From an uncultured Alphaproteobacteria bacterium (GTDB lineage Bacteria > Pseudomonadota > Alphaproteobacteria > RF32 > CAG-239): a stretch of DNA of 64,000 nt. This document shows positions 17,923 through 62,235 of this stretch, piece by piece; positions within the stretch are counted from its first letter, which is position 1; each line of letters begins with the position of its first letter. Under the pieces are notes generated by a model. It saw nothing but the letters and a program-made list of their open reading frames with translations. It did not search any database and had not been told where the DNA came from. The translations under genes and the position numbers were made by a program. The stretch spans positions 11,183 to 75,182 of the forward strand of contig CALXPK010000024.1 in the NCBI GenBank assembly GCA_944390265.1, given 5' to 3'.

Positions 17923-17940
17923 ATGCTAAAAAAATTTTAA

Positions 17941-20667: not shown

Positions 20668-21329
20668 TGATGACTACAACAATTTTTATGCTCTGGACAA
20701 CAGCTTTTTTGACCGCGGTTATTCATACAATTGCCGGACCGGACCACTATTTGCCGTTTATTGCCATTGCTAAAAGTAAAAATTTTAGCCTTAAAAAGAC
20801 GTTGGTTTGGACGTTTGTTTGTGGACTCGGACATATCGGCAGTGCTTTGCTAATTGCTTTAGCTTTTATTTATTTTTCTCATTGGCTGAGCCAAGAAAAT
20901 TTTGAATGGATTGAGAAAAATCGCGGAGATGTGGCCGCATATGCCCTTATCGGTTTAGGTGCTGCTTATCTTTTGTGGGCTTTGCGGCATCGCTGGCAGC
21001 ATCGGCACGGCTTGGCTCATCAGCATCATTATTTGCCCGATGGTGACCAGCCAAATGTTACCGTTTGGGTCGTTTTTATTATATTCGTGTTTGGTCCTTG
21101 TGAAGCCTTGTTGCCGATTTTGACTGCTTCTAGTGTGTTGGGTGCTTCAGCTATTATTTCCAGCACGATTATTTTTTCATTGGCCACTATCGGTACAATG
21201 ATGCTGACTGTCACTCTTGGCTTGTTGGGAATGAAGGCTTTTCATTTTCAAAAAATGGAAAAATATGCTCATGAAATTGCCGGCGGAACAATCATGACTT
21301 GCGGTATGGCAATTTTGTGTGGACTGTGA
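20667..21329 (+). CDS. Putative nickel/cobalt transporter (NicO/HoxN-like membrane protein)
   Basis: 6-7 TM segments; HTIAGPDH motif in TM1; adjacent to larBCE. Confidence 0.55.
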   Translation: MMTTTIFMLWTTAFLTAVIHTIAGPDHYLPFIAIAKSKNFSLKKTLVWTFVCGLGHIGSALLIALAFIYFSHWLSQENFEWIEKNRGDVAAYALIGLGAAYLLWALRHRWQHRHGLAHQHHYLPDGDQPNVTVWVVFIIFVFGPCEALLPILTASSVLGASAIISSTIIFSLATIGTMMLTVTLGLLGMKAFHFQKMEKYAHEIAGGTIMTCGMAILCGL

Positions 21330-21366
21330 CTTTTGGGTTATTGTTATATAGATGAGGGGACAATAA

Positions 21367-23853: not shown

Positions 23854-23865
23854 GAAAGGAAAAAA

Positions 23866-24888: not shown

Positions 24889-25877
24889 TGATTCCAATAG
24901 TTGCAATATCTGATGCCAAGCAGGCATTTGCTTTGGCAACATTGTTTGTTAATTTGATGGAAACTAAGGCAAAAGAAACTGTTTATGAACTCAATGCTTT
25001 GGTCGCACCGGATTTTACCGATGAGGATGTGGCAAAAATAAAATCTCTTGAGCATAGTTATCAGGATTGCAAAATCAATATTATCAAGATGGATAATCGC
25101 TTTGATCATATCAAAAACGGAACCGGTTATATTGCCAATTGTTGTGCTTATAAAATGTGTATGGCGGAGATGTTTCCGCAATATGATAAAATTTTGTATC
25201 TGGATACGGATATGCTTGTTTTTGAAGATTTGAGCCCGCTTTATAATACGGATATGTCCGATAATTATATCGGTGGGGTCTTTTCTATTGATCATTATCT
25301 TAATCGGCGTGAGTTGATTGAAAAACTTAATATTCCCGATATGACGGACTATGTGAATGCCGGAATGCTGTTGATGAATTTGGCGGAAATCAGAAAAAAC
25401 AGAATTGAAGAAAAATTGCAAGCCTTAATCGGCTCGTATAATGATTCGGTTGATCAGCATATTTTTAACAAGGTTTGCTATGGGCATATTAAGCATTTGC
25501 CTTTCAAATATAATGTCTTTAAATCTTCCGAGTGGATGTATGATAACAAGGAGGCTTTGGTCTGCATGACCGGAGAAGAGCTTGATGAAATAATCAACAG
25601 TCCGGCTATTTATCATTATACCGGTAAAGAAAAGCCTTGGAACACACTGAAAATTAAATATGGTGTGCGGTGGATTTGGTATTATAAAAAGACGGCTTAC
25701 AAAGATTTAAAGTTGATTTTGGCCGAAGTCAAAAAAATAGAAACGACAACACCGCAAAAAGTTAAAATGCGTTTAATCGACTATGTTTTTTCAATTAAAA
25801 AATATAAAAAACAAGGTAAATCTTTTAAACAATTGACCATTTTAGGGCTTAAGCTGAAATTGCAAAAAAATAAATAA
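24888..25877 (+). CDS. Family 8 glycosyltransferase, tandem paralog of the preceding gene (about 70% aa identity by eye)
   Basis: YLDTDMLVFED DxD motif; colinear similarity to 23866..24888. Confidence 0.85.
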   Translation: MIPIVAISDAKQAFALATLFVNLMETKAKETVYELNALVAPDFTDEDVAKIKSLEHSYQDCKINIIKMDNRFDHIKNGTGYIANCCAYKMCMAEMFPQYDKILYLDTDMLVFEDLSPLYNTDMSDNYIGGVFSIDHYLNRRELIEKLNIPDMTDYVNAGMLLMNLAEIRKNRIEEKLQALIGSYNDSVDQHIFNKVCYGHIKHLPFKYNVFKSSEWMYDNKEALVCMTGEELDEIINSPAIYHYTGKEKPWNTLKIKYGVRWIWYYKKTAYKDLKLILAEVKKIETTTPQKVKMRLIDYVFSIKKYKKQGKSFKQLTILGLKLKLQKNK

Positions 25878-45140: not shown

Positions 45141-46766
45141 ATGCGCTTTTTTTCTAAAATATCATCTTTGTTTGCCAAAGATTTTTGGTGGCAGATAAAG
45201 TCTTATCAATTCAACGCTATTTTTTCTTTGTTCACGTTGTTTGCCTATAACAAACTTTTTTTTGAAAAACTTTGGAATATCTATCCGAGCTTGCTGTTTG
45301 TGAGCCTGCTCACCTTGGTGTTGTTTTTGCTCTTGAATGCGGCTTGTGCTCTTTTGTTTTGGCCGAGAATGACCAAGTTTTTGGCAATTGTTCTCACGCT
45401 TATCAACGGCGGCGTTTTTTATTTTATGTACGTTTATAACGTGGCATTTGATAAAGTGATGTTGATGAACGTTTTGGAAACAGATGTGCAGGAAGTGGCC
45501 GCTTTGCTCAGCTGGGATATGGTTTGGATGTATTTTCTGTTGGCGATTTTGCCCTCAATTTTGATTTATAAAACCAAAATTGTTTATAATACGCCCAAAA
45601 AATTAATCTTGCACAAAATCGGGTTGATTTTGGGGGCGTTTCTTATCTCGGCCGCCATTATCGCGGGCGGCTATAAAGAAACGGCTCAATTCTTGCGCAA
45701 CAATAAGCCGATTAAATATTTGTTGGTGCCGGTCAACTATTTCAGTGCCGTGATTTCGGTTGCCAAAAAACAATTGCGCTCCCGCCCCAAAGAGTTGATA
45801 AAAGTTGGGAAAGATGCCGTGCTTCAGCCTTATTGGCAAAACAACGGCAAGCCCAACTTGTTTGTTTTTGTGGTGGGAGAAACCGCCCGTGCCGCCAATT
45901 TTTCTCTCAACGGCTATGAACGCGATACTAACGCGCCCTTAAAGCCTTTTAAGGCTGATTTGCTCAGCTACAAGAATGTTTATTCTTGCGGAACGTCTAC
46001 CGCAATCTCGCTTCCGTGCATTTTTTCTGCTCGGGGAAGAAATGATTTTGACAAGGTGGAATCCCGCTATCATGAAAATCTTTTAGATGTTGTGCAACGC
46101 GCCGGATACAAAGTTTGGTGGCGCGGCAATGTGACCGGTTGTAAGGGAATTTGCACCCGCGTGGAAACGCAGATGCTTTGTGACAAAGATACCTGCTTTG
46201 ATGATATTTTGAACAAAGGTTTGAATGAGCGTGCCTTAAAAGAAAACAAAGATATGTTTGTGGTTTTGCATCAGCTCGGCAGTCACGGCCCGACTTATTA
46301 TAAACGCTATCCTAAGTCGGCCGAAAAGTTTGCGCCGAATTGCATGACCGAACGCTTGGATAAATGCTCGCGCGAAGAGATTGTGAATGTGTATGATAAC
46401 ACCATTTATTATACTTCTGACAATTTGGCCGATTTAATTAAACAACTTGAGTCTTTGAAGGGAAAATATAACACCTTTATGCTCTATGTTTCCGACCATG
46501 GCGAATCTTTGGGCGAAAACAACATTTATCTGCATGCCGCGCCTTATATGGTGGCGCCGGATGAGCAAATCCACGTGCCGATGATTGTGTGGTTTGATGA
46601 TGAATTTGCGCAAAAATTTCATCTCGACAGAAACTGTCTGAAAACAAAACTTGAAAACGAATATTCTCATGATAATTTGTTTCATTCGTTTTTGGGGCTG
46701 ATGGGTATTAAAACTTCCGTCTATAATGCGGAGCTGGATATTTTTAATCAATGTCAACAAAAATAA
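45141..46766 (+). CDS. eptA: Phosphoethanolamine transferase (EptA/LptA family, lipid A/LOS)
   Basis: N-terminal 5-TM region followed by a sulfatase domain; FVFVVGETARAANFSLNGY and CGTSTAISLPC motifs. Confidence 0.9.
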   Translation: MRFFSKISSLFAKDFWWQIKSYQFNAIFSLFTLFAYNKLFFEKLWNIYPSLLFVSLLTLVLFLLLNAACALLFWPRMTKFLAIVLTLINGGVFYFMYVYNVAFDKVMLMNVLETDVQEVAALLSWDMVWMYFLLAILPSILIYKTKIVYNTPKKLILHKIGLILGAFLISAAIIAGGYKETAQFLRNNKPIKYLLVPVNYFSAVISVAKKQLRSRPKELIKVGKDAVLQPYWQNNGKPNLFVFVVGETARAANFSLNGYERDTNAPLKPFKADLLSYKNVYSCGTSTAISLPCIFSARGRNDFDKVESRYHENLLDVVQRAGYKVWWRGNVTGCKGICTRVETQMLCDKDTCFDDILNKGLNERALKENKDMFVVLHQLGSHGPTYYKRYPKSAEKFAPNCMTERLDKCSREEIVNVYDNTIYYTSDNLADLIKQLESLKGKYNTFMLYVSDHGESLGENNIYLHAAPYMVAPDEQIHVPMIVWFDDEFAQKFHLDRNCLKTKLENEYSHDNLFHSFLGLMGIKTSVYNAELDIFNQCQQK

Positions 46767-48834: not shown

Positions 48835-49710
48835 ATGATGAAAATATTGTCTTTTGATATTGGCGGAACAAAAATTGCTTTTGCGCTTGTGGATGAAGCG
48901 GGAAAACTCCTTACGCAGCCGGTGAAATATTCAACACCGGCCAGCAAAGAGGCTATCGAATCCTTGTTGAAAAAGATTATTGCTCAACATGAAAACGAGA
49001 TTGATGCCGTTGCCATTTCTACCGCCGGAACGGTTGATATTTGTAACCAAAAAATCACCGGTTCGGTCGGAAATTTGCCGGAAGGTTATGGCAAAATTGA
49101 TTTCCAAGCGCTTTCCAAGAAAAAAGTTTTTGTGGTCAATGACGCCAATGCCGCAGTGTGGGCCGAATATAAGGTTGGGCATGCGCAGGGTATGGATAAT
49201 GTGGTGTTGTTGACGCTCGGTACCGGCGTTGGGGTCGGAATCATTATAGATGGGCATTTACTAAAAGGAAAATCCGGTGCGGCCGGAGAGGTGCATTTTC
49301 CGGTCAGACAAGATAATCATCGTCGTTGCGGGTGTGGAAATTATGATTGTTTGGAAGTCTATATGTCCGGAACGGCGCTTAATTTGGATGCTAAAGAAGC
49401 CTATAAAGATGATAATATGACTAGCCATGACATTATTGCCGGTTTAAAAGAAAATGATGCCAAAGCCTTGAGCGTTTTTGAGCGCTGGGAGAGTATGGTG
49501 GAGACAGGAGTTCGAATTTTTGCCAGTATTTTTGATCCGGATATTATTTTGCTCGGCGGATCGATGGCGCATTTTATCAATTATCCGATGATGGAAAAAC
49601 ATGTTAATGAGGCGATTGTGACTTCTCCAATCAAACTTAAAGAGGCTGAGTTTGAAAACAATGCCGGCATTATCGGCGGGGCTTTGCTTTGTGCCGAGAG
49701 TTTGAAGTGA
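48835..49710 (+). CDS. ROK-family sugar kinase (plausibly an N-acetylglucosamine kinase)
   Basis: ILSFDIGGTKIAFALV; zinc motif CGCGNYDCLEVYMSG. Confidence 0.85.
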   Translation: MMKILSFDIGGTKIAFALVDEAGKLLTQPVKYSTPASKEAIESLLKKIIAQHENEIDAVAISTAGTVDICNQKITGSVGNLPEGYGKIDFQALSKKKVFVVNDANAAVWAEYKVGHAQGMDNVVLLTLGTGVGVGIIIDGHLLKGKSGAAGEVHFPVRQDNHRRCGCGNYDCLEVYMSGTALNLDAKEAYKDDNMTSHDIIAGLKENDAKALSVFERWESMVETGVRIFASIFDPDIILLGGSMAHFINYPMMEKHVNEAIVTSPIKLKEAEFENNAGIIGGALLCAESLK

Positions 49711-49713
49711 GTG

Positions 49714-49790
49714 CAAATCCCTACGTGACTTTTAAAATGAAAAAAGACAGCTTTCGCTGTCTTTTTTGTATGGTAGCGAGAGAGGGATGG
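49714..49790. repeat. Direct repeat of 49909..49985: caaatccctacgtgac + terminator hairpin + an 18-nt copy of the tRNA-Met 3' end (tggtagcgagagagggat)
   Basis: Two near-identical roughly 77-bp units about 195 bp apart; an inverted partial T-arm copy at 49897-49916. Confidence 0.6.
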
Positions 49791-49970
49791 GCTAAAAACT
49801 TTTTATATAAAAAGTTTTCTTAACGCCGACCTTGAAAGATTTTGCCTAAAGGCAAAACCGGCATACTCCCGTCTGCCTTCTTTCAGCGGTTCAAACCCAC
49901 GCCTCGTGGGTTCAAATCCCTACGTGACTTTTAAATATGAAAAAGGCGGTAAGAATACCGCCTTTTTGTA

Positions 49971-50046
49971 TGGTAGCGAGAGAGGGATTCGAACCCACGA
50001 CACAAGGATTATGATTCCTCTGCTCTACCGACTGAGCTATCCCGCC
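49971..50046 (-). tRNA. tRNA-Met (CAU), elongator-like
   Basis: Reverse complement GGCGGGATAGCTCAGTCGGTAGAGCAGAGGAATCATAATCCTTGTGTCGTGGGTTCGAATCCCTCTCTCGCTACCA folds as a cloverleaf with a CAT anticodon. Confidence 0.9.
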
Positions 50047-50298: not shown

Positions 50299-52056
50299 AT
50301 GGTTGAAAATGCCAGACAAACTACGGTTGTACATTTTATTGCCGACGGAGAAGTGAAAGAATTTAACTTTAACTTCCAAATTTTTGAGGCCGGCGATGTG
50401 GATGTCTACCTTGATGAAACGTTGACCGATACCGGTTATAACGTATCGATTGATGAAAATATCGGCGGTAAGGTGATTTTTAGTCAGCCGCCGGTTAACG
50501 GAACGCGAATCACCATTATTCGCAATTTGGATATCAAAAGAACTTCTGATTTTCAGGAAGGCGGAGCTTTTCGGGCTAAAGTGATTAATCATGAATTGGA
50601 CTATCAGGTGGCTACGCTCCAACAGTTGGATGAAAAAATCGGCCGCTCCATGATTTATCCGCCCTATGTGCAAGACGGGGTCAGTATGCAACTTCCGCTT
50701 CCGTCTGCCGGAAAAGCTCTGGTTTGGAATCAGCAGGCAACGGCATTGGAAAATTCTTCGGCTGTTGTGGATGATTTGCAAAATGTTACGCAACAATATC
50801 GCGATGCGGCCAAACAAGCTCAAATTGCGGCGGAAAGCAGCAAAAATGAGGCAGCTCAGGCGGCTTTGGCTTCGTCTGACAGTGCCGGACAAGCCGAAAC
50901 TTTTGCACAATTGGCTCAAGATTGGGCGAATAAGTTGGGCGATACGGTCGATGGAATTGAATATTCTGCCAAAAAATATGCTCAAGAGGCTAAATCTTAT
51001 GCTCGGCAGGCAAATGTTGCCTCCATTCAGGCCAACTGCATTACGGCCATACCTCAAGACATAAACCTTGAGTTAAACAACGGCACACTGACACTTAAAG
51101 CTGGTAGCAAGGTCTATGTGCCAAACGGTGTTGGTGTGTTTGATGAATATGTTGTCGAAAGCGATATTTCAAGAGATGCTTGGAGCTCTATAAACGGTAG
51201 CTATTTGGTTCTTTTACAGCCTACAGACTCTGGTTATGCGTTTGGTTTTAGCAATAATGCGACATCTGGAACAACTCCTCCTCAAAGCGGTGTTTTTTTT
51301 AACACGGAGACAAATATTATATCAAACTATTCCGGTGGTTCTATCTCAACTCAAGGTTGGAGTTTGCCCCTCTGTGTCGGTACTTTCAGTAACGGTGTTA
51401 TCACTTCAATCGACCAAGTCTTTAACGGATTTGGTTATATCGGAAGTACGATTTTTGCTTTGCCGGGGGTTGAAGGTTTGATTCCTAACGGCAGAAATGC
51501 TGATGGGAGCCTGAATAATACCAAGTTTGTGACAACAAGCATTCTCAGTAAAACATATCCTATAAATGTAAAAACAGGTACAGTATTTTTAACATCAATT
51601 AGTATTGGTGCTGTCCCTGAATGGTATTATGATTCAGACAAGAATATAATTACAGATGGCTCAGATGTTTATGAATATGTTGAGGCGGGATATTGCATTG
51701 TCGACTCAACCGGCAGAGTGACTTCGTTTAAGCCTAAGCAGGTGTTTCGTGCCGTTGATGTTAATGATTTGGATGATGTTAAATATGCTGTCGAAAGCGG
51801 AAATAATTATATTTACTTCCCGGATAAAACCCTCATCCAGTGGGGACAGGCGGGTGCAGGTTCAAGTGTTAACGTTACTTTGCCAAAACCGTTTGTAAAT
51901 ACAAGTTATTCCGTAACGGCTTTGTCAACAAATGATGGCGGAACTTCGAATCCTTATAGAATTTCTGTATATAACCGAACAGCAACAAACTTTAATCTTG
52001 TTTGCACGGCTGCAACTATCGGTAAAGATTGGATTGCCATTGGGAAAGGAGCATAA
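50299..52056 (+). CDS. Phage tail-fibre protein (585 aa)
   Basis: Conserved phage tail-fibre-like N-terminus TTVVHFIADGEVKEFNFNFQIF; coiled QAQIAAESSKNEAAQAALASS segment; Gly/Ser-rich beta-rich C-terminus. Confidence 0.75.
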   Translation: MVENARQTTVVHFIADGEVKEFNFNFQIFEAGDVDVYLDETLTDTGYNVSIDENIGGKVIFSQPPVNGTRITIIRNLDIKRTSDFQEGGAFRAKVINHELDYQVATLQQLDEKIGRSMIYPPYVQDGVSMQLPLPSAGKALVWNQQATALENSSAVVDDLQNVTQQYRDAAKQAQIAAESSKNEAAQAALASSDSAGQAETFAQLAQDWANKLGDTVDGIEYSAKKYAQEAKSYARQANVASIQANCITAIPQDINLELNNGTLTLKAGSKVYVPNGVGVFDEYVVESDISRDAWSSINGSYLVLLQPTDSGYAFGFSNNATSGTTPPQSGVFFNTETNIISNYSGGSISTQGWSLPLCVGTFSNGVITSIDQVFNGFGYIGSTIFALPGVEGLIPNGRNADGSLNNTKFVTTSILSKTYPINVKTGTVFLTSISIGAVPEWYYDSDKNIITDGSDVYEYVEAGYCIVDSTGRVTSFKPKQVFRAVDVNDLDDVKYAVESGNNYIYFPDKTLIQWGQAGAGSSVNVTLPKPFVNTSYSVTALSTNDGGTSNPYRISVYNRTATNFNLVCTAATIGKDWIAIGKGA

Positions 52057-52057
52057 A

Positions 52058-52546
52058 ATGCAAATAAACGATATTTTTGATTTGAGCCAATATGATGAGG
52101 CTTATAAATTTGTTCAAGAAAACTCAGGTGCAACGATTGTAGATTTGGGTGAGGGAAAATATCAAATTGTTGAATTGCCCAAGCCAAATCTTGATGAACT
52201 CAAACTTGCCAAGCGGACAGAGATTAATGCTGCACGCGATGCTGCCGAACAAGGCGGCTTTTTTTATATGGGGAAAACCTTTGACAGCGATATTGTTTCT
52301 TGTATCCGCATTCAAGGAGCGGCACAGTCCATGCAGGCGGCAACCATGGCCGAAGATGTGCCGACCATCACATGGACGTGTCAAGACAACACTACAATTG
52401 AACTCACGGCACAAGAATTATTGGGCTTGAGCGTGGCTCTTGCCGAATGGTCTAACACTTGCCACCAAAAAGCGACCGCACTTAAAGCTCAGATAGAATC
52501 AGTAACCTCAGAAGAAGAATTGGAGAAAATAAAATGGAACGCATAA
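52058..52546 (+). CDS. Phage tail-fibre assembly protein (Tfa, DUF4376-like)
   Basis: RBS gggaaagga; starts 1 nt after the tail-fibre stop; FDLSQYDEAYKF...KRTEINAARDAAEQGGFFYMGKTFDSD pattern. Confidence 0.7.
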   Translation: MQINDIFDLSQYDEAYKFVQENSGATIVDLGEGKYQIVELPKPNLDELKLAKRTEINAARDAAEQGGFFYMGKTFDSDIVSCIRIQGAAQSMQAATMAEDVPTITWTCQDNTTIELTAQELLGLSVALAEWSNTCHQKATALKAQIESVTSEEELEKIKWNA

Positions 52547-52896
52547 AAAGAAAATATACACGTCATAAGGTTTATGACTTTGCCGTAGAGGGTATTAATT
52601 ATATCACCTTAAGAGAGCAAACTTTTGAAAACATCACCGTGCCGAAAGATTTTGTTTTTGACGGGGTGACGGTGCCGGCGCCTTTTACGCTGCTTTTTTC
52701 TAACAAAGATTTGCGCCAGGGAATTAAGGCCGCTTGTTTTCATGACTATATGTGCCAAAACAAAAATCTTTATACCCGCAAGCAGGCAACCGATATTTTG
52801 ATGAAAATTTGGCAAGAAAACGGCCTTAACAAATTCAAAGCCGTGATTGCCAAGACAAGCGTGAATATCTATCAGATGCTCAAAGGCTGGAAATAA
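52534..52896 (+). CDS. DUF1353-family (phage-associated) protein
   Basis: VPKDFVFDGVTVPAPF and CFHDYMC motifs. Confidence 0.65.
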   Translation: MERIKRKYTRHKVYDFAVEGINYITLREQTFENITVPKDFVFDGVTVPAPFTLLFSNKDLRQGIKAACFHDYMCQNKNLYTRKQATDILMKIWQENGLNKFKAVIAKTSVNIYQMLKGWK

Positions 52897-52990
52897 TTAC
52901 TATGCAAATGTAACGAATTGGGTTTGACATCATTTTACCTTAATATTACTAATAAATTATTGTGTTTACCAAAAAAGAAAGATACAACCG

Positions 52991-54454
52991 ATGAGAAACT
53001 TATATAACAAAAATTTGCTCATATTCCTTTCAATACACTTCCTGGTATGGTTTATTGTGCCGTTGATGCGCCAAAGTTTGCCTTTGGACTCGGTTGAGGC
53101 TATTACTTGGGGCAGATATTGTGACTTTGGTACCAATAAACATCCGCCTTTGTCCGGTTTTCCGGCTGAGTGGTTTTATCAGCTTTTCGGACAGGCCGGT
53201 ATTTATCTGCTCAATCAAGTTCTGGTTCTCATCGGTTTTATCTTTATTTATAAACTTACCAAATGCTTTTTGAGTGAAGGCAAAGCCGTTTTATCGGTTA
53301 TGCTTTTGGAAGGCGTGATTTATTACGGTTTCAGCGCACAAGAATATAACGTCAATGTGGTGTCTTTGGCTTTGTGGCCGCTCACCGCTTATTATTTTTA
53401 CATCGCTTTGAGCAAAAACACCATGAGCGCTTGGGTCTTGACCGGTTTGTTTGCCGGTTTGAATATGCTCAACAAATATGTCGGCGGCATTGAGCTCTTG
53501 TGTATGGTTCTTTATTTGTTCTTTACCAAAGAGGGGAGAGCTCAGTTCAAAAAAGTCGGCCCTTATATCACCTTTATTTTGTTCCTTGTTGTTATAGCAC
53601 CGCACGTTTGGTGGCTCTATCAGCATGATTTTTATTCTTTTGAATATCTGATGGGGCGTGCCGGAAACGGAGCACAAACGCTGGGTGCTAAAATTTGGGC
53701 GCATTTCTTCTATCCCATTAAGTTTTTAGGCTCGCAGATTTTGTTTACCCTCATGGCAGTTTTGCTTTTTTATTTAAGCTATCGCCGTGATGCCAAAGAA
53801 GCTGATTATTTGACCAAAGATAAAAAACAATTTCTTTTCTATATGGGAATTTTGCCGGTATTTTTATTTGCGGCCGTGGCTCTTATCAGCGGAAGCAAAC
53901 TCAAGAGCATGTGGGGTTTTCCGACCATGTATATGCTCGGTATCGTTCTTTTTGCTTATTTTCCGTATAAACTTTCCGATATCAATTTCCGTAAGACTGT
54001 CAAGTCGGTTTATGTGGCCATGGTATTATTTGCCGTTGCGGCTTTGTCGATTATTGTCTTTGATAAGAGTGAAAAAATCAATTTTCCTTATCAGAAGTTT
54101 GCTCAAGATATGTCTTATGCTTGGAAACTCCATACCGACAAACCTTTCAAATATGCCGGCGGCGAGATTTGGTATGTGGCCAACTTGTCCATTTTTGCCG
54201 ATGCACAACCCAAACCGGTGGCCGGTATGAAACCCGAACACAGCCCGTGGTTTGATAAAGAAGATATTTTATCAAGCGGGGCGCTGGTGGTCTTTCCAGA
54301 CAAAGGCGCTTATATGGCTCTCAAAAATATTTATCCGAATATGAGCGAGCCGAGTGAATATAGGCTTGAATTTAAAAATCGAATTGGTAAGCTAAAGAGC
54401 AAGGTGATTTATTATGGCTTTTTTGAGCCGGTATCAGAGGTGAACCATGACTAA
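52991..54454 (+). CDS. ArnT/PMT-like (GT39/GT83) polytopic membrane glycosyltransferase
   Basis: About 11 TM helices; first-loop LPLDSVEAITWGRY resembling the DE-type motif of ArnT/PMT enzymes. Confidence 0.8.
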   Translation: MRNLYNKNLLIFLSIHFLVWFIVPLMRQSLPLDSVEAITWGRYCDFGTNKHPPLSGFPAEWFYQLFGQAGIYLLNQVLVLIGFIFIYKLTKCFLSEGKAVLSVMLLEGVIYYGFSAQEYNVNVVSLALWPLTAYYFYIALSKNTMSAWVLTGLFAGLNMLNKYVGGIELLCMVLYLFFTKEGRAQFKKVGPYITFILFLVVIAPHVWWLYQHDFYSFEYLMGRAGNGAQTLGAKIWAHFFYPIKFLGSQILFTLMAVLLFYLSYRRDAKEADYLTKDKKQFLFYMGILPVFLFAAVALISGSKLKSMWGFPTMYMLGIVLFAYFPYKLSDINFRKTVKSVYVAMVLFAVAALSIIVFDKSEKINFPYQKFAQDMSYAWKLHTDKPFKYAGGEIWYVANLSIFADAQPKPVAGMKPEHSPWFDKEDILSSGALVVFPDKGAYMALKNIYPNMSEPSEYRLEFKNRIGKLKSKVIYYGFFEPVSEVNHD

Positions 54455-55430
54455 AGATTCTATCAGTATTGTTGTTTCTGCCTATAATGAAGAAGGCAAT
54501 GTTGAGGCTTTGTACAAAGAGCTGAAAAAGGTTTTGAAAGAAACGAACGTCAAAGATTATGAGATTATCTATGTCGATGACGGTAGTACGGACAAAACCC
54601 ATGCCAAATGTCAGGCTTTGCAAAAGAAAGATGAACACGTCAAAATCGTGCATCTCAAACGCAATTTCGGGCATGAGATTGCCATGACCGCCGGTATGGA
54701 CTATGCCAAAGGAGAGGCCGTTATCTTTATGGATTCTGATTTGCAACATCCGCCGGTTTATATCAAACAAATGGTGGAAGAATGGCAGAACGGATATGAT
54801 ATTGTCTTAACTCGCCGTGTGGATAATGTGGATACTTCGGCTTTTTACAAATTCTGTGCCAAAAGTTTTTATAAGATTTTGAATCTGTTATCTGATACAA
54901 AAATCCCTGAAAAAACACCGGATTTTCGCCTGATTGACCGCAAATATATTGACTTTTTGAAAAACTTTAATGAACAAGACAGATTGTTTCGCGGGTTGCT
55001 GAGCTGGATTATGCCCAACGACAAGGTCAAGGTTTTGGACTTTGTGGCACCGCAGCGTCATGCCGGCGAATCGAAGTATAATTTCCGCAAGAGCTTGCAA
55101 CTGGCCGTTAACTCAATTATTCAATTTTCAGTCAAGCCGTTGCGTTTTTCAACTTATTTAGGCATTATCACGGCTTTTGTTGCCGGATTGCTTGGTTTGT
55201 GGGTTATCGGTGAGCATTTTATCATGCACAAACCAACCCCCGGTTATGCTACCATTATGGTAACAATGATTTTCCTTGGCTCGGTGCAACTGATTGTTTT
55301 GGGAATTATCGGTGAATATATCGGCAAAATCCATATGGAAGTGAAAAAACGTCCGCTCTATATGGCAGATTATGAAACACAAGAAGAAGTGAAACAGGTG
55401 GTGCGTCATGGCTCTAAAAAAGATATTTAA
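54447..55430 (+). CDS. GT2 polyprenyl-phosphate glycosyltransferase (ArnC/GtrB/LgmA-like)
   Basis: ISIVVSAYNEEGN; DDGSTD; FMDSDLQHPP; two C-terminal TM helices. Confidence 0.9.
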   Translation: MTKDSISIVVSAYNEEGNVEALYKELKKVLKETNVKDYEIIYVDDGSTDKTHAKCQALQKKDEHVKIVHLKRNFGHEIAMTAGMDYAKGEAVIFMDSDLQHPPVYIKQMVEEWQNGYDIVLTRRVDNVDTSAFYKFCAKSFYKILNLLSDTKIPEKTPDFRLIDRKYIDFLKNFNEQDRLFRGLLSWIMPNDKVKVLDFVAPQRHAGESKYNFRKSLQLAVNSIIQFSVKPLRFSTYLGIITAFVAGLLGLWVIGEHFIMHKPTPGYATIMVTMIFLGSVQLIVLGIIGEYIGKIHMEVKKRPLYMADYETQEEVKQVVRHGSKKDI

Positions 55431-56235
55431 TGCCGATGATTTCGGTATGACCCCGGGGGTGAATCAAGCTATAGCCAAGGCTTATCATGAGGGAATCTTG
55501 AACTCGACAAGCATCATGATTAACTTGAACTTTGTCAAAGAGGCGCTTGAGTTAAAGAAAGATATGCCGAACTTGGATGTGGGCTTGCACCTCAATCTGA
55601 CCAACCAATATGCACTTTCGGTTCCGGAAAATATTCCCTTGCTGGTTGACGGTAACGGTGAGTTTAAAAACGGGTTTGTCAGCTTGTTTTTGCTTTCCTT
55701 ACGCCACCCCAAAGAGCTGGCGCGGCAGGTGGAGTTGGAAGCCAGAGCCCAAATTGAAAAAGCCTTGAGTCTCGGAATTAAACTTTCGCATATTGACAGC
55801 CATCGTCATATCCACCATATTCCGGTGATTTTCAAAGTGGTGAAAAAGCTGGCGGAAGAATATAAAATCCCGAGAATCCGCGTGATGAACGAAAACATTT
55901 TTAACACGCTTAAATATAATGATGACAAGTGCTTTCTCCATGACGGCGGTTTGGTTAAATATTTGGTTTTGCGCTCGATGGTGATTTGGAATAATTATCC
56001 GACCGATACTTATTTTTACAGCATATTATATACATGCAAACTTTCAAAAAAACGCTTTAACGGTTTGAAAATGCCTGAAAAATATAAGGCGGTGGAAGTG
56101 GGTATCCATCCGGCAATGCCTGAGGTGGATAAAGAGCACATGGAAAATGTGTTTGATGAAAACGTGCTTTCTCCATGGCGTACCAAAGAGCTGGAAACCT
56201 TGCTTGACAAGAAAATAGCTGATGAAATTCAATGA
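55408..56235 (+). CDS. YdjC/ChbG/HpnK-family carbohydrate deacetylase
   Basis: NADDFGMTPGVNQAI family signature; HIDSHRHIHH. Confidence 0.8.
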   Translation: MALKKIFNADDFGMTPGVNQAIAKAYHEGILNSTSIMINLNFVKEALELKKDMPNLDVGLHLNLTNQYALSVPENIPLLVDGNGEFKNGFVSLFLLSLRHPKELARQVELEARAQIEKALSLGIKLSHIDSHRHIHHIPVIFKVVKKLAEEYKIPRIRVMNENIFNTLKYNDDKCFLHDGGLVKYLVLRSMVIWNNYPTDTYFYSILYTCKLSKKRFNGLKMPEKYKAVEVGIHPAMPEVDKEHMENVFDENVLSPWRTKELETLLDKKIADEIQ

Positions 56236-56651
56236 TAGTTGAGCTTTATAAAAAAATTGAGCGTATTTGGTTTACAATCAACCAAAAAATCCGCTTTCTT
56301 TTGGTGGGCGGATTTAATACCGTATTTGCCTACGGTGTGTTTGCGGCTTTGTTTGAACTTGTGAAAATTCCGTATAATCCGGCACTGATTTTGCAATATT
56401 TCATCACCGTCAACGTGTCTTTCATCACAATGCGGTATTATGTTTTTCAGAGCCACGGCAATATCAAAGCCGAATATTTTAAGGCTTGGACGGTTTATAT
56501 CGGGATGTATTTTTTCAATGCCTTTGCGCTTAATTTATTTGTGCGTGTGCTTGGCCTTTATCCTTTGGTCGGGCAGGCTGCATATTTGGTTATTTCTACC
56601 ATTTTGACCTATCTCTTGCATAAATATTTTTCTTTCCGCGAGAAAAAATAA
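56232..56651 (+). CDS. GtrA-family polyprenyl-phosphate-sugar flippase-like protein
   Basis: 139 aa, 4 TM; FLLVGGFNTVFAYGVF. Confidence 0.8.
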   Translation: MIVELYKKIERIWFTINQKIRFLLVGGFNTVFAYGVFAALFELVKIPYNPALILQYFITVNVSFITMRYYVFQSHGNIKAEYFKAWTVYIGMYFFNAFALNLFVRVLGLYPLVGQAAYLVISTILTYLLHKYFSFREKK

Positions 56652-56727: not shown

Positions 56728-58620
56728 GTGATGCAAAAGCTGCTTTGTTTGTCTTGTTTGCTGATGTCCGGCACGGCTTTGGCTTTGGATGTGCCGTCCG
56801 GAACATCTAAAACGGGTCTGTCCGTTTCCAGCAACAATCCGTTGACGGTGGAAGGAACTGTGAGCAACACAACAGTTGGAACTTATGGCAAGATGACGGT
56901 GCAAAACGGTGGAACTGCCGATACCACAACGGTTGGCAGACGCGGCACATTGACGGTGACAGGAAGCGGAAGCTCTGCCGATAATACCATTCTTAACGGT
57001 GCGCAAATGAATGTGACTAATGCAGCTTCAGCAAACGGTATTGCCGTGAATTCTTCTTCCAAAGTTTATGTCGGGGATACCGCAACTATCAGTAATGCAA
57101 AAATAAACGGCGGCAACGTGGAAATTTTGAGCGGCGGCGAAGCAACCAACAGCGAAATTAATGACGGCTATATGTTTGTGGAAGATAAGGCTCTGATTAA
57201 TAACACAACCGTAAACGGTGGTTTGTTAGATGTTTTTGCCGGTGGTGCTGTCAGCGGTTTGACCTTGAACGGTGGAGAAACCGTTTTTGAAGGAGATATT
57301 GATGTTACCGGTATAACAGAGGTTAATGCCGGCAGTGCTTTATATTTGAACGGCGATACCAGTTTCGTTGAGCTGGATTTGAACGGCGGCGATATTTATT
57401 CGGTTTATAATGACGGATTTAAAAATATTGAGGTGACCAATTTAGACGGTAACGGAACTATTTATATGAACACAGATGTGGCTCAAAAAGGGCATGATAC
57501 CTTAAATGTGGAAAACGGCGGCAGCGGCAAAATCGGCTTGGCATTGACCGACTATAGTGCCACCCCCGTGTTTGCCCAAAATATGATTCTGATTGAAGGT
57601 TTGCCGGCAGAGAACTTTTATTTGGTTGGCGGTGCAGCTGATGTGGGCGCTTTTCACTATGATTTGCAAAAAGGAGCCGACGGTTGGTATTTGACCAAAA
57701 CCATGCAGCTCAGTGATACGGCGGTTCTGGCCAAAAATACATATTCAGCCATTCATTCGGTGATGTATGCGCATTTGGAAAATTTGAATAACCGATTGGG
57801 TGAAATTCATACCAACAAAAACGGCGGACTTTGGGTTAGGGGAATCCATCGTGAGCTGGATTTGGATTTTGATGATGCAAGTCAATCCGATGTGGATATG
57901 AACGGCGTGCAAGTTGGTTTTGACCATGCTTTGAAACAAAATATTTTCAACCGCTGGCTCATCGGTGTTTACGGCGGTTATTCCGACACCGACCAGAGCT
58001 TTGATCGCTCCGGTGACGGCTCGGCCGATACCTACAGCTTTGGTGCTTATACGACGATGATTGCACAAAACGGGCTTTATGCCGATGTGGCGATGGCTTA
58101 TTATCATCACAAACAAAAAATCACCAGCTATTTGCCGTTTGGGGCACAAGTTGACAGTGACTATGATGTGGACGGCTACACGCTTTCTTTGGAAGGCGGA
58201 AAACGCTTTGAACTTGACAACGGCTATTATGTCGAACCGCAAGCGCAAATCAGCTATCTTGATTTTGATAACGTTTCTTATCGCACTTCTTATAATACGC
58301 TGATTGATGCGGCCAATCAGGGAACATGGTTGGCAAGAGCCGGCATTATTTTGGGCAAAAGAATCGATGATTTTTACGATATGCCGTTGGATGTTTTTGT
58401 TCGCACCGATTTTTATTCGGAAATTGACAACGGGCATAAGGTGACCGTGGCCGGATATAAAATCGAAGAAGACCGGTCGGAAAATTTTGTGCGCTTGGGT
58501 ACCGGTTTTAACCTCAATACCAATGAAGGACAAGAGCTTTATTTTTCGCTTGGCACCATCATGGGCGGAAATGTTGAAATGCCTCTGGATTTGAGTTTGA
58601 ATGCGCGGTTTGAATTTTAA
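56728..58620 (+). CDS. Classical autotransporter (repetitive beta-helical passenger + C-terminal beta-barrel)
   Basis: Signal peptide MMQKLLCLSCLLMSGTALA; repeated TVxNGGxxxxTTV units; C-terminal barrel ending LSLNARFEF. Confidence 0.85.
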   Translation: MMQKLLCLSCLLMSGTALALDVPSGTSKTGLSVSSNNPLTVEGTVSNTTVGTYGKMTVQNGGTADTTTVGRRGTLTVTGSGSSADNTILNGAQMNVTNAASANGIAVNSSSKVYVGDTATISNAKINGGNVEILSGGEATNSEINDGYMFVEDKALINNTTVNGGLLDVFAGGAVSGLTLNGGETVFEGDIDVTGITEVNAGSALYLNGDTSFVELDLNGGDIYSVYNDGFKNIEVTNLDGNGTIYMNTDVAQKGHDTLNVENGGSGKIGLALTDYSATPVFAQNMILIEGLPAENFYLVGGAADVGAFHYDLQKGADGWYLTKTMQLSDTAVLAKNTYSAIHSVMYAHLENLNNRLGEIHTNKNGGLWVRGIHRELDLDFDDASQSDVDMNGVQVGFDHALKQNIFNRWLIGVYGGYSDTDQSFDRSGDGSADTYSFGAYTTMIAQNGLYADVAMAYYHHKQKITSYLPFGAQVDSDYDVDGYTLSLEGGKRFELDNGYYVEPQAQISYLDFDNVSYRTSYNTLIDAANQGTWLARAGIILGKRIDDFYDMPLDVFVRTDFYSEIDNGHKVTVAGYKIEEDRSENFVRLGTGFNLNTNEGQELYFSLGTIMGGNVEMPLDLSLNARFEF

Positions 58621-59325: not shown

Positions 59326-60123
59326 ATGACAAATATTCACCCGACAGCTGTTATTGAAGATGGTGCTCAAATTGCCGCAAGTGCAAAAATCGGCCCTTTG
59401 TGCTGGATTAGTTCTCGAGCCAAAATCGGCGAAAACGTGCAACTTTTGGGTCGCGTTACCGTGATGGGCAATACCACCATCGGTGAAGGCACAATCGTTT
59501 TCCCCGGAGCTGTGTTGGGTGCCGGTCCGCAAGACCATGGTAATGAATTCAAAGAAGAAGCAAAACTCATTATCGGTAAACGTAATATCATCAGAGAAAA
59601 CGTGACCATGCATGCCGGAACTCCGAAAGAGCATTTTACAACCACGGTTGGTGATGACGGTATGTTTATGATTAACTCTCACATTGCTCATGACTGCGTG
59701 GTCGGCAATGGTGTGATTATGACCAACAATGCCGTTATCGGCGGTCACGTTCGTTTGGGTGATGGCGTTATCTTGGGTGGTAACTCAGCCGTTCACCAAT
59801 TCTGCCGTATCGGTCGCAAGGCCATGGTCGGCGGTTTGTCCGGTGTTGACCGCGATGTTATTCCGTTTGGTATTGTAACCGGTGACAGAGGCAAACTCCG
59901 CGGCTTGAACGTGGTTGGTTTGAAACGCAGCGGTTATGATGAACATACCATCAAATCCATTTCTCATGCTTTTATGTTCTTGTTCAAAGGCAAAGAAGGC
60001 ACTTTTGATGAGCGCTTGGCTCAAGCTAAAGAAAAGTTCAAAGACAATGAAATGGTTATGGAGCAATTGAAGTTCATTGATGAAGGACTTGAAGGCAGAC
60101 GCAAAATTATGATGGCTGACTAA
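59326..60123 (+). CDS. lpxA: UDP-N-acetylglucosamine O-acyltransferase
   Basis: MTNIHPTAVIEDGAQI hexapeptide repeats; 265 aa. Confidence 0.95.
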   Translation: MTNIHPTAVIEDGAQIAASAKIGPLCWISSRAKIGENVQLLGRVTVMGNTTIGEGTIVFPGAVLGAGPQDHGNEFKEEAKLIIGKRNIIRENVTMHAGTPKEHFTTTVGDDGMFMINSHIAHDCVVGNGVIMTNNAVIGGHVRLGDGVILGGNSAVHQFCRIGRKAMVGGLSGVDRDVIPFGIVTGDRGKLRGLNVVGLKRSGYDEHTIKSISHAFMFLFKGKEGTFDERLAQAKEKFKDNEMVMEQLKFIDEGLEGRRKIMMAD

Positions 60124-60226
60124 TTTGCCATAAGTTTTTATGTGATAACCGGCAAGGTTTTGCTTGAAAAAGTGGGCTTTGCCGGTTATTGTGATTTTAA
60201 GATAAACCAAAAAAGGATTTTGTTTG

Positions 60227-61081
60227 ATGTTTGAGCGCAAACTCGGTATTGTGGCCGGCGGCGGCGATATTCCCCAAATGTTGATTGAACATTGTCAACA
60301 ACAAAAACGTGATTTTTTTGTTTTGGCAATTGAGGGCAATGCCGATGAACATTTGGTTGATGATACCATTCCGCACGCGTGGATACGTTTGGGACAGGCC
60401 GGCAGCGGTTTTAAGCGCCTGAAAGATGAAAACGTGCAAGACGTGGTGATGATCGGCACCATCAAACGCCCGAGCTTCAAAGAGCTGGTGCCGGATTTGC
60501 GCACCACGGCTTTTTTTGCCAAAATCGGTATGAAATCATTGGGCGATGACGGCATTTTGCGTGCCGTGGTCAAAGAGTTTGAGCATGACGGTATGGTGGT
60601 GCGCGGAATCCACGAAGTGATGCCTGATTTGCTGGTTAAATCCGGCGTGTTGACCAAACATAAACCTGATAAAAAAGCGCTTGCCGATATTAAACGCGGT
60701 GTGGAAGTGGGCTTGGAGCTCGGCCGCTTGGATGTCGGACAATCGGTTGTTGTGCAACAAGGCTTGGTCTTGGGTGTGGAAGGCATTGAAGGAACCGACA
60801 AGCTCATCATTCGTTGCGGTGAATATAAACGCAAAGGTGAGGGCGGGGTTTTGGTCAAACTCAGAAAACCGCAACAAGATATGCGTATCGACTTGCCGAC
60901 GATTGGTATCCGGACCTTGCAAAATGCCAAAAATTCCGGTCTGCGCGGGGTGGCCGTCCATGCCGGCAATGCTTTGATTGTGGATGAAAAAAATGTGGTC
61001 GATTATGCCAACAAAGAAGGGCTGTTTATTATCGGAATCAATCCTGCCGATTATGTGAATGATGAGGGAGGAGAAAATTAA
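60227..61081 (+). CDS. lpxI: UDP-2,3-diacylglucosamine pyrophosphatase LpxI (DUF1009)
   Basis: LGIVAGGGDIPQML N-terminus; positioned between lpxA and lpxB as in alphaproteobacteria. Confidence 0.85.
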   Translation: MFERKLGIVAGGGDIPQMLIEHCQQQKRDFFVLAIEGNADEHLVDDTIPHAWIRLGQAGSGFKRLKDENVQDVVMIGTIKRPSFKELVPDLRTTAFFAKIGMKSLGDDGILRAVVKEFEHDGMVVRGIHEVMPDLLVKSGVLTKHKPDKKALADIKRGVEVGLELGRLDVGQSVVVQQGLVLGVEGIEGTDKLIIRCGEYKRKGEGGVLVKLRKPQQDMRIDLPTIGIRTLQNAKNSGLRGVAVHAGNALIVDEKNVVDYANKEGLFIIGINPADYVNDEGGEN

Positions 61082-62235
61082 TGAAAGTTTATTTGATTGC
61101 CGGAGAACCTTCGGGAGATTTATTGGGCTCACGTTTGATGCGTGCCATGCGCAAAAAAGACAAAAATGTTGAATTTTTCGGCGTGGGCGGAGATACGATG
61201 GAAGCCGAAGGTTTGCATTCGCTTTATGATATTTCCGATTTGGCCGTGATGGGCTTGACCGAGGTTATTCCAAGTATTCCGAAAATTTTGAAACATATCA
61301 AAGAAACCATTACCGACATTCAAAAAGTGCAGCCGGATGTGGTAGTAACCATTGATTCTTGGAGCTTTTCTTCTCGCATTCATAAGGCCTTGCGTAAGCT
61401 CAAAACAGGCATTCCGCAAGTGCATTATGTGGCGCCGCAAGTTTGGGCTTGGAAGAAAAAAAGAGCGCGCACCATGTATAAATATATTGATTGTTTGCTC
61501 ACACTTTTTCCCTATGAGCCAAAATATTTTACTCCTTACAAGCTTGATGCACGTTTTGTCGGGCATCCGGTGATTGAAAGCGAGGCGATTACGGCCAGCG
61601 GTGAGGCATTCCGCAAAAAATTCAATATTCCGGAAAGCAAAACCGTTATCACCATCTTGCCGGGGTCGCGCAAGAATGAGGTTTCGCGCCTTTTGCCGGT
61701 GTTTATGGAAGCTGCGGAAGAGCTGCACCAAGCTAATCAAGATTTTTATTTTGTTTTGCCAACCGTCAAAACCGTGGCTGATATGGTCAAAACTGAACTT
61801 AAAAATTATGAGCTTCCGGTGTTGGTGGTGGAAAATCAGCAAGATCGGTATGGGGCTTTTCGCGCCAGTTCGGCGGCCATTGCCGCTTCCGGTACGGTGG
61901 CTTTGGAATTGGCCATTTGCGATATTCCACATATTATTGCCTATAAAGTGGCGCCGTTAACCGCATTTTTGGCAAAAAGATTTTTGCATATTCAGTTTGT
62001 TAATCTTTCTAACATTTTGCTGGGGCGTGAGATTATTCCCGAGCTCCTTCAAGAGCGTTGTGTGAAGGGCAATATTCGTTCTTATATTTTGGAACTTTTA
62101 CGTCAGGGAGATTTGTATCATCGGCAGATGGACGGCTTTGTCAAGGTCCGCAAAATTTTAGGACAGGGCGAGCAAACCCCAAGCCAAAATGCCGCCGATA
62201 TCATTTTTGAGCTTATCAAAAACAAAAAAATGTAA
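61081..62235 (+). CDS. lpxB: Lipid-A-disaccharide synthase
   Basis: MKVYLIAGEPSGDLLGSRLMRAM N-terminus; 384 aa. Confidence 0.95.
   Translation: MKVYLIAGEPSGDLLGSRLMRAMRKKDKNVEFFGVGGDTMEAEGLHSLYDISDLAVMGLTEVIPSIPKILKHIKETITDIQKVQPDVVVTIDSWSFSSRIHKALRKLKTGIPQVHYVAPQVWAWKKKRARTMYKYIDCLLTLFPYEPKYFTPYKLDARFVGHPVIESEAITASGEAFRKKFNIPESKTVITILPGSRKNEVSRLLPVFMEAAEELHQANQDFYFVLPTVKTVADMVKTELKNYELPVLVVENQQDRYGAFRASSAAIAASGTVALELAICDIPHIIAYKVAPLTAFLAKRFLHIQFVNLSNILLGREIIPELLQERCVKGNIRSYILELLRQGDLYHRQMDGFVKVRKILGQGEQTPSQNAADIIFELIKNKKM

Follow-up and report, generated by a model that had tools for sequence, protein, structure and literature searches.

Does a four-gene cassette that lies directly downstream of phage tail-fibre genes and a tRNA-Met gene belong to a phage or to its bacterial host, and what do its products do? 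The window considered here, that is, the whole stretch of 64,000 nucleotides that was analysed, comes from an organism known from metagenome-assembled genomes only; members of its lineage turn up in gut metagenomes from humans, ruminants, rabbits and mice. Four co-directional open reading frames (ORFs) were confirmed at 52991-56651, all on the + strand and overlapping by 8, 23 and 4 nt:

52991-54454, + strand: GT-C membrane glycosyltransferase (PMT_2/GT39 type, ArnT-like fold), 487 aa, PF13231
54447-55430, + strand: GtrB/ArnC-type GT2, 327 aa, PF00535
55408-56235, + strand: YdjC-family deacetylase, 275 aa, PF04794
56232-56651, + strand: GtrA-family small membrane protein, 139 aa, PF04138

All four ORFs score well above their Pfam thresholds, bearing out the families (PMT_2, GT2, YdjC and GtrA) that an earlier note on this DNA had assigned. 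The GT-C protein matched PF13231 (PMT_2; E 1.7e-30, 106.8 bits, cut-off 26.1). The other profile proposed for it in that note, PF02366, was not matched in Pfam, whereas E. coli ArnT matches PF02366 at E 2.4e-62, and no sequence similarity to E. coli ArnT was detectable. The protein has 13 helices and is predicted to be a periplasmic transferase that passes an amino sugar from a lipid carrier to an acceptor. Along its entire length the GT2 (PF00535, E 5.5e-37) resembles both GtrB sll0501 (5ekp) and ArnC, at 254 and 128 bits respectively, and it also matched phrog_841, a "GtrB-like" family of O-antigen conversion, at 317 bits; its best NCBIfam match was PgfS of a protein-glycosylation system, under that model's cut-off. 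The GT2 motifs DDGSxD (45-49) and DSD (96-98) are kept in 78 orthologues, and the C-terminal part of the protein contains two transmembrane (TM) helices (237-255 and 270-288). A role as polyprenyl-phosphate N-acetylhexosamine synthase at the cytoplasmic face is predicted.

The third protein matched PF04794 (E 7e-59) and fell under the NCBIfam cut-offs for ChbG and HpnK. At least 97% of 76 sequences share its residues D10, D11, H61, H128, D130, H132 and H134; neither a TM helix nor a signal peptide was detected. It is predicted to deacetylate lipid-P-HexNAc to lipid-P-HexN on the cytoplasmic side, and the fourth protein (PF04138, E 2.3e-17) is a predicted translocator of lipid-linked sugar.

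Bordetella lgmABCD, in which we take LgmC to be YdjC-like and LgmD to be GtrA-like, likewise combines an ArnC/GtrB-type GT2 and a deacetylase with an ArnT-fold GT-C, the GT-C of the cassette being ArnT-like in its modelled fold. This likeness holds at family level only, both for the GT2 (PF00535, GtrB/ArnC similarity, DxD motifs and two C-terminal TM helices) and for the deacetylase (PF04794, conserved residues and fusion to GtrA in 21 species). The gene order differs, being lgmA-lgmB-lgmC-lgmD in Bordetella and GT-C, GT2, YdjC, GtrA in the cassette and all 62 complete relatives; so does the host, here an uncultured gut alphaproteobacterium. The product of the Bordetella system is GlcN (+161 Da) on the 1- and 4'-phosphates of lipid A. 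Whereas lgmA, lgmB and lgmC are needed for GlcN on lipid A phosphates, the small gene lgmD is dispensable (PMC4993483, PMC11895810), and 9 of 71 cassette loci likewise lack a GtrA gene beside GT-C, GT2 and YdjC.

In Francisella, the ArnC-like GT2 FlmF2 is needed for GalN and the ArnT homologue FlmK passes the sugar to lipid A (PMC2233673, PMC11279074, PMC8306577), with NaxD as the YdjC-superfamily deacetylase of Und-P-GalNAc (PMC11279074). The enzyme logic of FlmF2/NaxD/FlmK is that of the first three steps proposed for the cassette, although no GtrA-type component is described for Flm in these papers (PMC2233673, PMC11279074, PMC8306577). The enterobacterial Arn (Ara4N) pathway, arnBCADTEF, shares the strategy more broadly: a GT2 loads an N-acylated amino sugar, which is deacylated in the cytoplasm, flipped and transferred by a GT-C enzyme to a lipid A phosphate. 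However, Arn has ArnA/ArnB, which make UDP-Ara4N and have no homologue adjacent to the cassette, and its deacylase (ArnD) and flippase (ArnE/ArnF) stand in place of the YdjC-family and GtrA-type proteins; ArnT also differs from the cassette GT-C in Pfam family, the latter matching PF13231 only. A three-component architecture for extracytoplasmic glycosylation, in which a membrane GT-A enzyme works with a GtrA-type flippase and a GT-C, is known (PMC13390465); the cassette encodes these components side by side, with a deacetylase added.

The logic of an Lgm/Flm-like pathway of amino sugar transfer, which the earlier note had proposed after Lgm, is probably right and is supported by the conserved catalytic motifs, the ArnT-like fold, the fusions of YdjC to GtrA and two arrangements of lipid A genes near the cassette (both described below). 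With a nucleotide sugar as donor, the GT2 would attach an N-acetylhexosamine to undecaprenyl phosphate on the inner side of the membrane, after which the cytoplasmic YdjC metallo-deacetylase would strip the acetyl group to give undecaprenyl-P-hexosamine. The GtrA-type protein would take this lipid to the periplasmic face, where the GT-C enzyme would pass the hexosamine to an envelope acceptor, most likely a lipid A phosphate or the inner lipopolysaccharide (LPS) core, and thereby add positive charge. Because a YdjC deacetylase accompanies GtrA and GtrB, the donor is presumably HexNAc-derived, that is, an amino sugar and not glucose. Four elements of this scheme are inferred: the sugar, taken to be GlcN or GalN; the sequence of the steps; the GtrA-type protein as flippase; and the acceptor. 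Attachment of an amino sugar to the cell surface is the most likely overall function of the operon.

The relationship between the deacetylase and the GtrA-type protein can be followed across relatives. Of 71 assessable loci, 41 carry GtrA as a gene of its own, 21 have it joined to YdjC in one gene, and 9 lack it beside YdjC. The 21 related species with the fusion encode a single YdjC-GtrA protein with the deacetylase N-terminal, and about 78 protein clusters of such fusions exist at 90% identity. Since YdjC is N-terminal in the fusions and lacks a signal peptide, it is placed in the cytoplasm beside the translocator. A more tentative proposal, less likely than not, is that the fusion physically links the de-N-acetylation of undecaprenyl-P-HexNAc to translocation by GtrA, and that throughout this lineage of commensal gut Alphaproteobacteria the operon constitutively gives lipid A a cationic decoration. 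Such a decoration would be functionally analogous to LpxF, which gives antimicrobial-peptide resilience in gut Bacteroidetes. If the proposal is correct, the fusions support on genetic grounds that GtrA acts as a flippase, a role still unproven, and that its substrate is the free-amine lipid. They also offer a clean handle on what GtrA-family proteins transport.

To which acceptor the sugar goes may be reflected in the genes around the cassette, two sets of which are involved in lipid A or LPS:

45141-46766, + strand: EptA/EptB-type phosphoethanolamine transferase, LPS-phosphate modifying (Pfam: Sulfatase and EptA_B_N), 6.2 kb upstream
59326-62235, + strand: lpxA, lpxI and lpxB (Pfam: Hexapep/Acetyltransf_11, LpxI_N/LpxI_C and LpxB), 2.7-5.6 kb downstream

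The downstream lpxA/lpxI/lpxB genes are conserved in same-genus loci, and an eptA-like gene is likewise found upstream in three other loci (L009, L011 and L012). In a different sub-clade, lpxK-kdtA-DUF374 lies 4-8 kb downstream of the cassette. Lipid A genes thus occur near the cassette in 15 of 80 loci, in two independent arrangements; with about ten distinct neighbourhoods examined, this is a suggestive but not a statistically compelling link to lipid A. LPS in general is probably the acceptor, and for lipid A in particular the chance is slightly short of even.

The same pathway could instead serve another envelope glycan, such as O-antigen, capsule, periplasmic glucans or peptidoglycan, which we regard as improbable yet worth weighing. 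Analogies exist in Gtr-type O-antigen glucosylation, in Gram-positive GacI/GacL-type systems and in mycobacterial GalN on arabinogalactan, and a wide range of polymers is modified by systems of the GT-A, GtrA and GT-C type (PMC13390465). The GT2 is also nearer to GtrB than to ArnC, a glycan biosynthesis cluster is present at 13.6-26 kb of the window, and the flanks lack lipid A genes in 65 of 80 loci. On the other hand, conservation throughout the clade, with strong purifying selection, is easier to reconcile with an invariant acceptor such as lipid A or the core than with a variable O-antigen, two independent neighbourhoods contain lipid A genes and eptA is present here, and lipid A is the target in each characterised system that combines YdjC, GT2 and GT-C, namely Lgm and Flm/NaxD (PMC4993483, PMC11279074). 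Should hexosamine indeed be added to the LPS core or to lipid A, an entire and poorly known lineage of gut Alphaproteobacteria would have a built-in cationic LPS modification. The equivalent in Bordetella and Francisella alters TLR4 signalling and resistance to polymyxin and antimicrobial peptides (PMC11895810, PMC11279074), and a modification of this kind would bear on the tolerance of commensals to host defence peptides and on the sensing of commensal LPS.

Much less probable is that the GT-C enzyme is a PMT- or Pgf-type protein O-glycosyltransferase that decorates secreted or surface proteins, for example the product of the autotransporter gene that adjoins the cassette. Autotransporter neighbours are confined to the closest relatives. 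ArnT and Pmt4 were compared with the GT-C model as solved folds: ArnT, one of the two closest, is the top Foldseek match and aligns over 388 residues, as opposed to 319 for Pmt4. The model also has a periplasmic domain of only about 100 aa, with no MIR or other large lumenal acceptor-binding domain. De-N-acetylation of a donor on its lipid carrier is known from the modification of lipid A and of cell-wall glycans and is not known from protein O-glycosylation.

We now return to the origin of the operon. Among uncultured gut Alphaproteobacteria, 71 species-level genomes could be assessed; 62 of them carry all four genes in this order, with GT-C identities of 35% to 92%, and a further nine carry the first three (GT-C, GT2 and YdjC). 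These loci share the operon genes only; their flanks vary and contain housekeeping genes. Compared with its closest same-genus relatives, the cassette has omega values of 0.02-0.10 and dS values of 0.6-2.0, the same range as for lpxA/lpxI/lpxB (dS 0.7-1.4), and its codon usage is native, like that of these adjacent genes. The region 5' of the operon is conserved in part:

52897-52990, + strand: intergenic region, candidate promoter, with a conserved TTGACA box at 52924-52929

Across 10 aligned loci (GT-C identity 49% to 92%), conservation of the TGACA columns is at least 90%, and the box is kept in every upstream context examined, whether phage genes, tRNA or other genes. Since a generic promoter scan did not call it, we only infer that the box is a candidate promoter of the operon itself. 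The cassette is very probably a resident operon and not phage-borne. It is likely that this operon is old, chromosomal and vertically inherited in uncultured gut Alphaproteobacteria, and that it serves lipid-carrier-dependent extracytoplasmic addition of an amino sugar.

How, then, did phage genes come to lie beside it? The upstream features are as follows:

49971-50046, - strand: tRNA-Met
50299-52896, + strand: orphan phage tail-fibre module (fibre, DUF4376 and DUF1353 genes; Pfam, PHROGs), a neighbour outside the operon
50299-52056, within the module: tail-fibre-like protein TF585, 585 aa (Gp53-like_C; N-terminus matching phrog_1640, "tail protein")
51932-52546, within the module: DUF4376 protein, matching PHROG tail-fibre families
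52534-52896, within the module: DUF1353 chaperone-like protein (phrog_1158, "tail assembly chaperone")

The earlier note had described tail-fibre, Tfa and DUF1353 genes beside an att-like site at tRNA-Met. Pfam and PHROGs agree on the tail-fibre and DUF1353 neighbours, and the tRNA-Met does lie upstream, but the supposed Tfa gene encodes the DUF4376 protein and does not belong to the classical Tfa family. An att-like scar near the tRNA-Met is also present, as a 26-nt exact repeat (49763-49788 and 49963-49988) that includes 18 nt of the tRNA 3' end (49771-49788 and 49971-49988; 0.02 chance matches expected). However, seen from the minus-strand tRNA it lies 3', towards the ROK kinase and away from the cassette, and it brackets neither the tail-fibre genes nor the cassette. 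The module has only remote phage relatives, and TF585 is a codon-usage outlier. DUF4376 or DUF1353 genes adjoin the cassette only in loci with 76% GT-C identity or more; tail-fibre-like genes extend to the 70% group. In 14 of 58 loci, the 8 kb upstream of the cassette include a tRNA-Met. In three of the relatives (L023, L031 and L032), it abuts the operon (177-203 bp upstream) with no phage genes between, which indicates that the tail-fibre genes were inserted beside a resident operon. The module is hence a separate, later insertion into a tRNA-Met hotspot beside the operon, and not its vehicle.

The earlier note had read the cassette as temperate phage cargo, a gtrABC-like module for amino sugar seroconversion that had entered the tRNA-Met site together with the tail-fibre genes. 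Phage gtrABC modules do share with it a GtrA-family protein, a GtrB-type GT2 (phrog_841, 317 bits) and a membrane transferase, as well as a position near tRNA and phage tail genes. They differ in that the cassette has an extra YdjC deacetylase and a PMT_2 GT-C transferase, lies outside a prophage and is clade-wide rather than sporadic. A scan of the larger window ORFs turned up no integrase, capsid, terminase or further phage gene. The GT-C, YdjC and GtrA proteins matched no PHROG family, GT-C has no homologue in INPHARED or IMG/VR, and the phage-collection matches of YdjC are weak and in fragmentary records only. Given also the same-order cassette in dozens of species with no phage genes nearby (essentially the conservation among relatives that the note itself had named as counting against its reading), the dS and codon usage equal to those of the lpx neighbours, with TF585 as the compositional outlier, the misplaced repeat, the three loci in which tRNA-Met abuts the operon and the TTGACA box kept in all contexts, delivery by a phage is extremely unlikely, and the claim fails.

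Outside this lineage, a comparable locus is present in Variovorax paradoxus CP063167.1. Its GT39 is homologous to the GT-C protein over the full length (hhalign probability 99.7%, E 1e-25), its GT2 is 35% identical (E 9e-69) and its YdjC (ChbG/HpnK-family) protein 27% identical (E 4e-13) to those of the cassette. The GT39 gene is divergent from the GT2 and YdjC genes, GtrA is absent and a SnoaL-like gene follows YdjC. As this locus links homologous GT39, GT2 and YdjC genes, the three-enzyme module recurs in Betaproteobacteria.

All four open reading frames that the earlier note had assigned to the cassette were borne out, on the plus strand and with overlaps of 8, 23 and 4 nt:

52991-54454, plus strand, GT-C glycosyltransferase (PMT_2, PF13231, E 1.7e-30)
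54447-55430, plus strand, GT2 glycosyltransferase (PF00535, E 5.5e-37)
55408-56235, plus strand, YdjC-family protein (PF04794, E 7e-59)
56232-56651, plus strand, GtrA-like protein (PF04138, E 2.3e-17)

Each of these Pfam assignments lies far over the gathering score. The families proposed for the last three products were all matched, and the GT-C protein, for which two had been put forward, matched PF13231 and gave no match to PF02366. In this it differs from Escherichia coli ArnT, which matches PF02366, and an hhalign comparison with E. coli ArnT was not significant. Exact look-up of the GT-C protein returned no record, and its profile found zero matches among PDB chains, even at E 10 and with beta- and gammaproteobacterial relatives added. 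The GT2 enzyme, with conserved DxD motifs and two membrane helices at its C-terminus, has greater full-length similarity to GtrB (254 bits) than to ArnC (128 bits), both polyisoprenyl-phosphate glycosyltransferases. The YdjC Asp-Asp and His/Asp-x-His-x-His residues are retained across 76 orthologues, and neither a signal peptide nor a transmembrane helix was detected in this protein. A narrower identity as HpnK or ChbG was rejected, as the protein scores under both NCBIfam cut-offs and is without hopanoid or chitobiose gene context.

At the family level, the cassette follows the same pathway logic as lgmABC of Bordetella, which are needed for glucosamine on lipid A (lgmD being dispensable; PMC4993483), and FlmF2/NaxD/FlmK of Francisella, in which the YdjC-superfamily member NaxD deacetylates Und-P-GalNAc (PMC2233673, PMC11279074). 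It also has the components of a generic three-component system (GT-A enzyme, GtrA flippase and GT-C enzyme; PMC13390465), plus a deacetylase. Moreover, a Variovorax GT39 protein aligns over its full length with the cassette GT-C family, and its gene lies beside a GT2 gene (35% identity) and a gene for a YdjC-family deacetylase. The biochemical reading of the earlier note is supported, and we infer an Lgm/Flm-type amino-sugar pathway, now in a new lineage. The gene order is different, and an informative fusion is found among the relatives. In 21 species, YdjC forms the N-terminal part of a fusion with a GtrA domain, in proteins of 420-440 aa (PF04794 and PF04138; L023:12419-13690 and L037:12354-13682, in two of the loci from other genomes that encode GT-C relatives, and 19 other loci), and approximately 78 clusters in the protein collection (90% identity) combine both domains in one protein, annotated just as "ChbG/HpnK family deacetylase" or "hypothetical protein". 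The fusion links deacetylation with the small membrane protein and indicates that the deacetylase is cytoplasmic. No paper in the literature collection searched combines GtrA, YdjC and undecaprenyl.

The comparison among relatives suggested by the earlier note shows the cassette to be a conserved unit. When a single genome from each species was scanned, 133 stretches encoding GT-C relatives emerged, and the window proteins were compared by tblastn with the best 80 of these (35%-92% identity). Among the 71 of those 80 loci with enough sequence, 62 encode all four genes in identical order, and nine encode the first three (GT-C, GT2 and YdjC) but have no GtrA gene beside them. Clustering of neighboring open reading frames recovered the four cassette genes as the sole genes in common; the flanks vary by sub-clade and are housekeeping in nature (gatA, a CcrM-type methylase, Ppx/GppA, an RlmE-like methyltransferase and a dUTPase-like gene). 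The nearest GT-C relatives all come from metagenome-assembled genomes labelled uncultured Alphaproteobacteria or Proteobacteria and derived from the gut of humans, ruminants, rabbits and mice. The GtrA-less loci (L049, L055, L057, L059, L069, L079, L080, L083 and L085; GT-C ~40% identical) form a sub-clade, and in the three mapped (L055, L057 and L069) an aldo-keto reductase gene follows YdjC in place of GtrA, with a GT92-like gene also present after YdjC in L055.

The GT-C subfamily is large, with 1,257 matches at E ≤ 1e-30 and 3,570 at E ≤ 1e-10 among 1.84 billion representative proteins, under generic public names ("glycosyltransferase family 39 protein"; for the deacetylase, "ChbG/HpnK family deacetylase"). 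It extends to Gammaproteobacteria and Helicobacter fennelliae, where the gene can stand alone. In the latter, an enterohepatic species, the homologue (loci L093 and L094) scores 415 bits to the family profile and has no adjoining GT2, YdjC or GtrA gene; hence, the subfamily is broader than the cassette. The plasmid collection held just remote GT39 and YdjC relatives, and the GT39 genes on Pantoea and Pandoraea plasmids stand alone.

Genomic context is suggestive of lipopolysaccharide as the acceptor of the sugar. In the window, an EptA/EptB-type transferase gene lies 6.2 kb upstream of the cassette, and lpxA, lpxI and lpxB lie 2.7-5.6 kb downstream. In a distant sub-clade, lpxK-kdtA-DUF374 lies 4-8 kb downstream, and the same genes are convergent just past the cassette in eight of the nine GtrA-less loci. 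Overall, lipid A gene context was found at 15 of the best 80 of 133 loci, in two independent arrangements. Since this context is suggestive, the GT-C fold does not discriminate between lipid A, protein and glycan acceptors, and no sequence similarity to E. coli ArnT or any solved structure was detected, we consider lipopolysaccharide, whether at lipid A or elsewhere, the probable acceptor, and lipid A itself a candidate at slightly below an even chance. Another glycan is an unlikely acceptor, and a protein a very improbable one.

The earlier note had also proposed that the cassette was delivered by a phage at a tRNA-Met site. PHROG and Pfam matches confirmed the phage-tail genes upstream, near a tRNA-Met gene:

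49971-50046, minus strand, tRNA-Met (Rfam)
upstream of the cassette, plus strand, 585-aa protein (N-terminus, phrog_1640 tail protein; Gp53-like C-terminus)
second upstream gene, DUF4376 protein (matches PHROG tail-fibre families)
third upstream gene, DUF1353 protein (matches phrog_1158 "tail assembly chaperone")

Delivery of the cassette itself by a phage is not supported. GT-C homologues were found neither in 50,697 phage records nor in IMG/VR, and the YdjC protein gave weak matches, limited to fragmentary records. The GT-C, YdjC and GtrA proteins matched no PHROG family; GT2 alone did, hitting GtrB-like families, which family-level homology would predict. Cassette genes show omega values of 0.02-0.10 against same-genus relatives and dS of 0.6-2.0 against the closest four, in the same range as lpxA, lpxI and lpxB (0.7-1.4). 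Their codon usage and GC3 (0.45-0.50) fall within the core-gene range, and the tail-fibre gene is a codon-usage outlier (GC3 0.367). The larger open reading frames elsewhere in the window are typical chromosomal genes (trxB, greA, dnaG, rpoD, a glycan cluster, ccrM, ppx, a flagellar rod gene, nagA/nagB-like and eptA-like genes, terC, marC and a ROK kinase gene), and no integrase, capsid or terminase gene was found among those scanned. The att-like repeat is real: a 26-nt sequence recurs exactly at a distance of 200 bp and includes 18 nt from the 3' end of the tRNA, where chance alone would give 0.02 matches. The repeat is located 3' of the minus-strand tRNA-Met, towards the ROK gene, and no copy flanks the cassette. 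Rfam found nothing in the window beyond three tRNAs.

In the simplest history, the operon and tRNA-Met already stood side by side when the tail-fibre module was inserted between them, in one genus. At L023, L031 and L032 (GT-C ~50% identical), tRNA-Met directly precedes the GT-C gene, at a distance of 177-203 bp. DUF4376 or DUF1353 adjoins the cassette only where GT-C is at least 76% identical; a tail-fibre-like gene is also present in the 70% identity group. All ten aligned loci share a conserved TTGACA box ahead of the GT-C gene, irrespective of what is found further upstream; in a promoter and terminator scan, sites were no more numerous than in shuffled sequence.

The tail-fibre module (50299-52896 in the window) is an orphan that has kept its position in roughly eight species-level genomes (the window, L009, L011-L014, L016 and L017), with no other phage genes nearby. 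Strong purifying selection acts on its DUF1353 gene (omega 0.04-0.06 at dS 1.0-1.6), the fibre gene is diverging rapidly (dN 0.55-0.66), and an IMG/VR scan found no relatives of the DUF1353 protein. The module may have been domesticated to serve, for instance, a tailocin or a gene-transfer-agent-like particle encoded elsewhere. At 49700-49990, a unit of ~80 bp is duplicated, with copies 200 bp apart. In each copy, the 3' end of tRNA-Met is accompanied by a hairpin carrying a T-run and by a fragment (GGTTCAAATCCCTACG...) similar to the T-arm and 3' end of a different tRNA. The units resemble scars left by earlier integrations at this hotspot.

Directly 3' of the operon is an autotransporter gene (56728-58620, plus strand) with a pertactin/AIDA-type passenger, conserved at this position only within the same genus. 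Its repeats match TIGR04415 (O_hepto_targRPT, a strand-loop-strand repeat model; E 1.3e-13). A 386-aa protein (11866-13026, plus strand) has a signal peptide followed by an eukaryote-like ubiquitin domain (PF00240, E 8e-21) and ~290 aa ending in ...NFQYDF. This C-terminal part looks like an outer-membrane beta-barrel, and it aligns with the autotransporter beta-domain only weakly and locally (E 0.002). Its gene is in a GC dip between tRNA-Met (11306-11382) and tRNA-Val (13259-13335), and its product may be a surface-displayed or secreted ubiquitin. A glycan biosynthesis cluster follows (13664-25877, plus strand), with genes for UDP-glucose dehydrogenase, an epimerase, two GT8 enzymes and a TupA-like ATP-grasp protein, and an FkbM methyltransferase gene of very low GC (0.276). 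Embedded in it at 17941-20667 are genes with AIR carboxylase, nickel-insertion protein and PP-loop family matches, which we take to be LarB/LarC/LarE-like.
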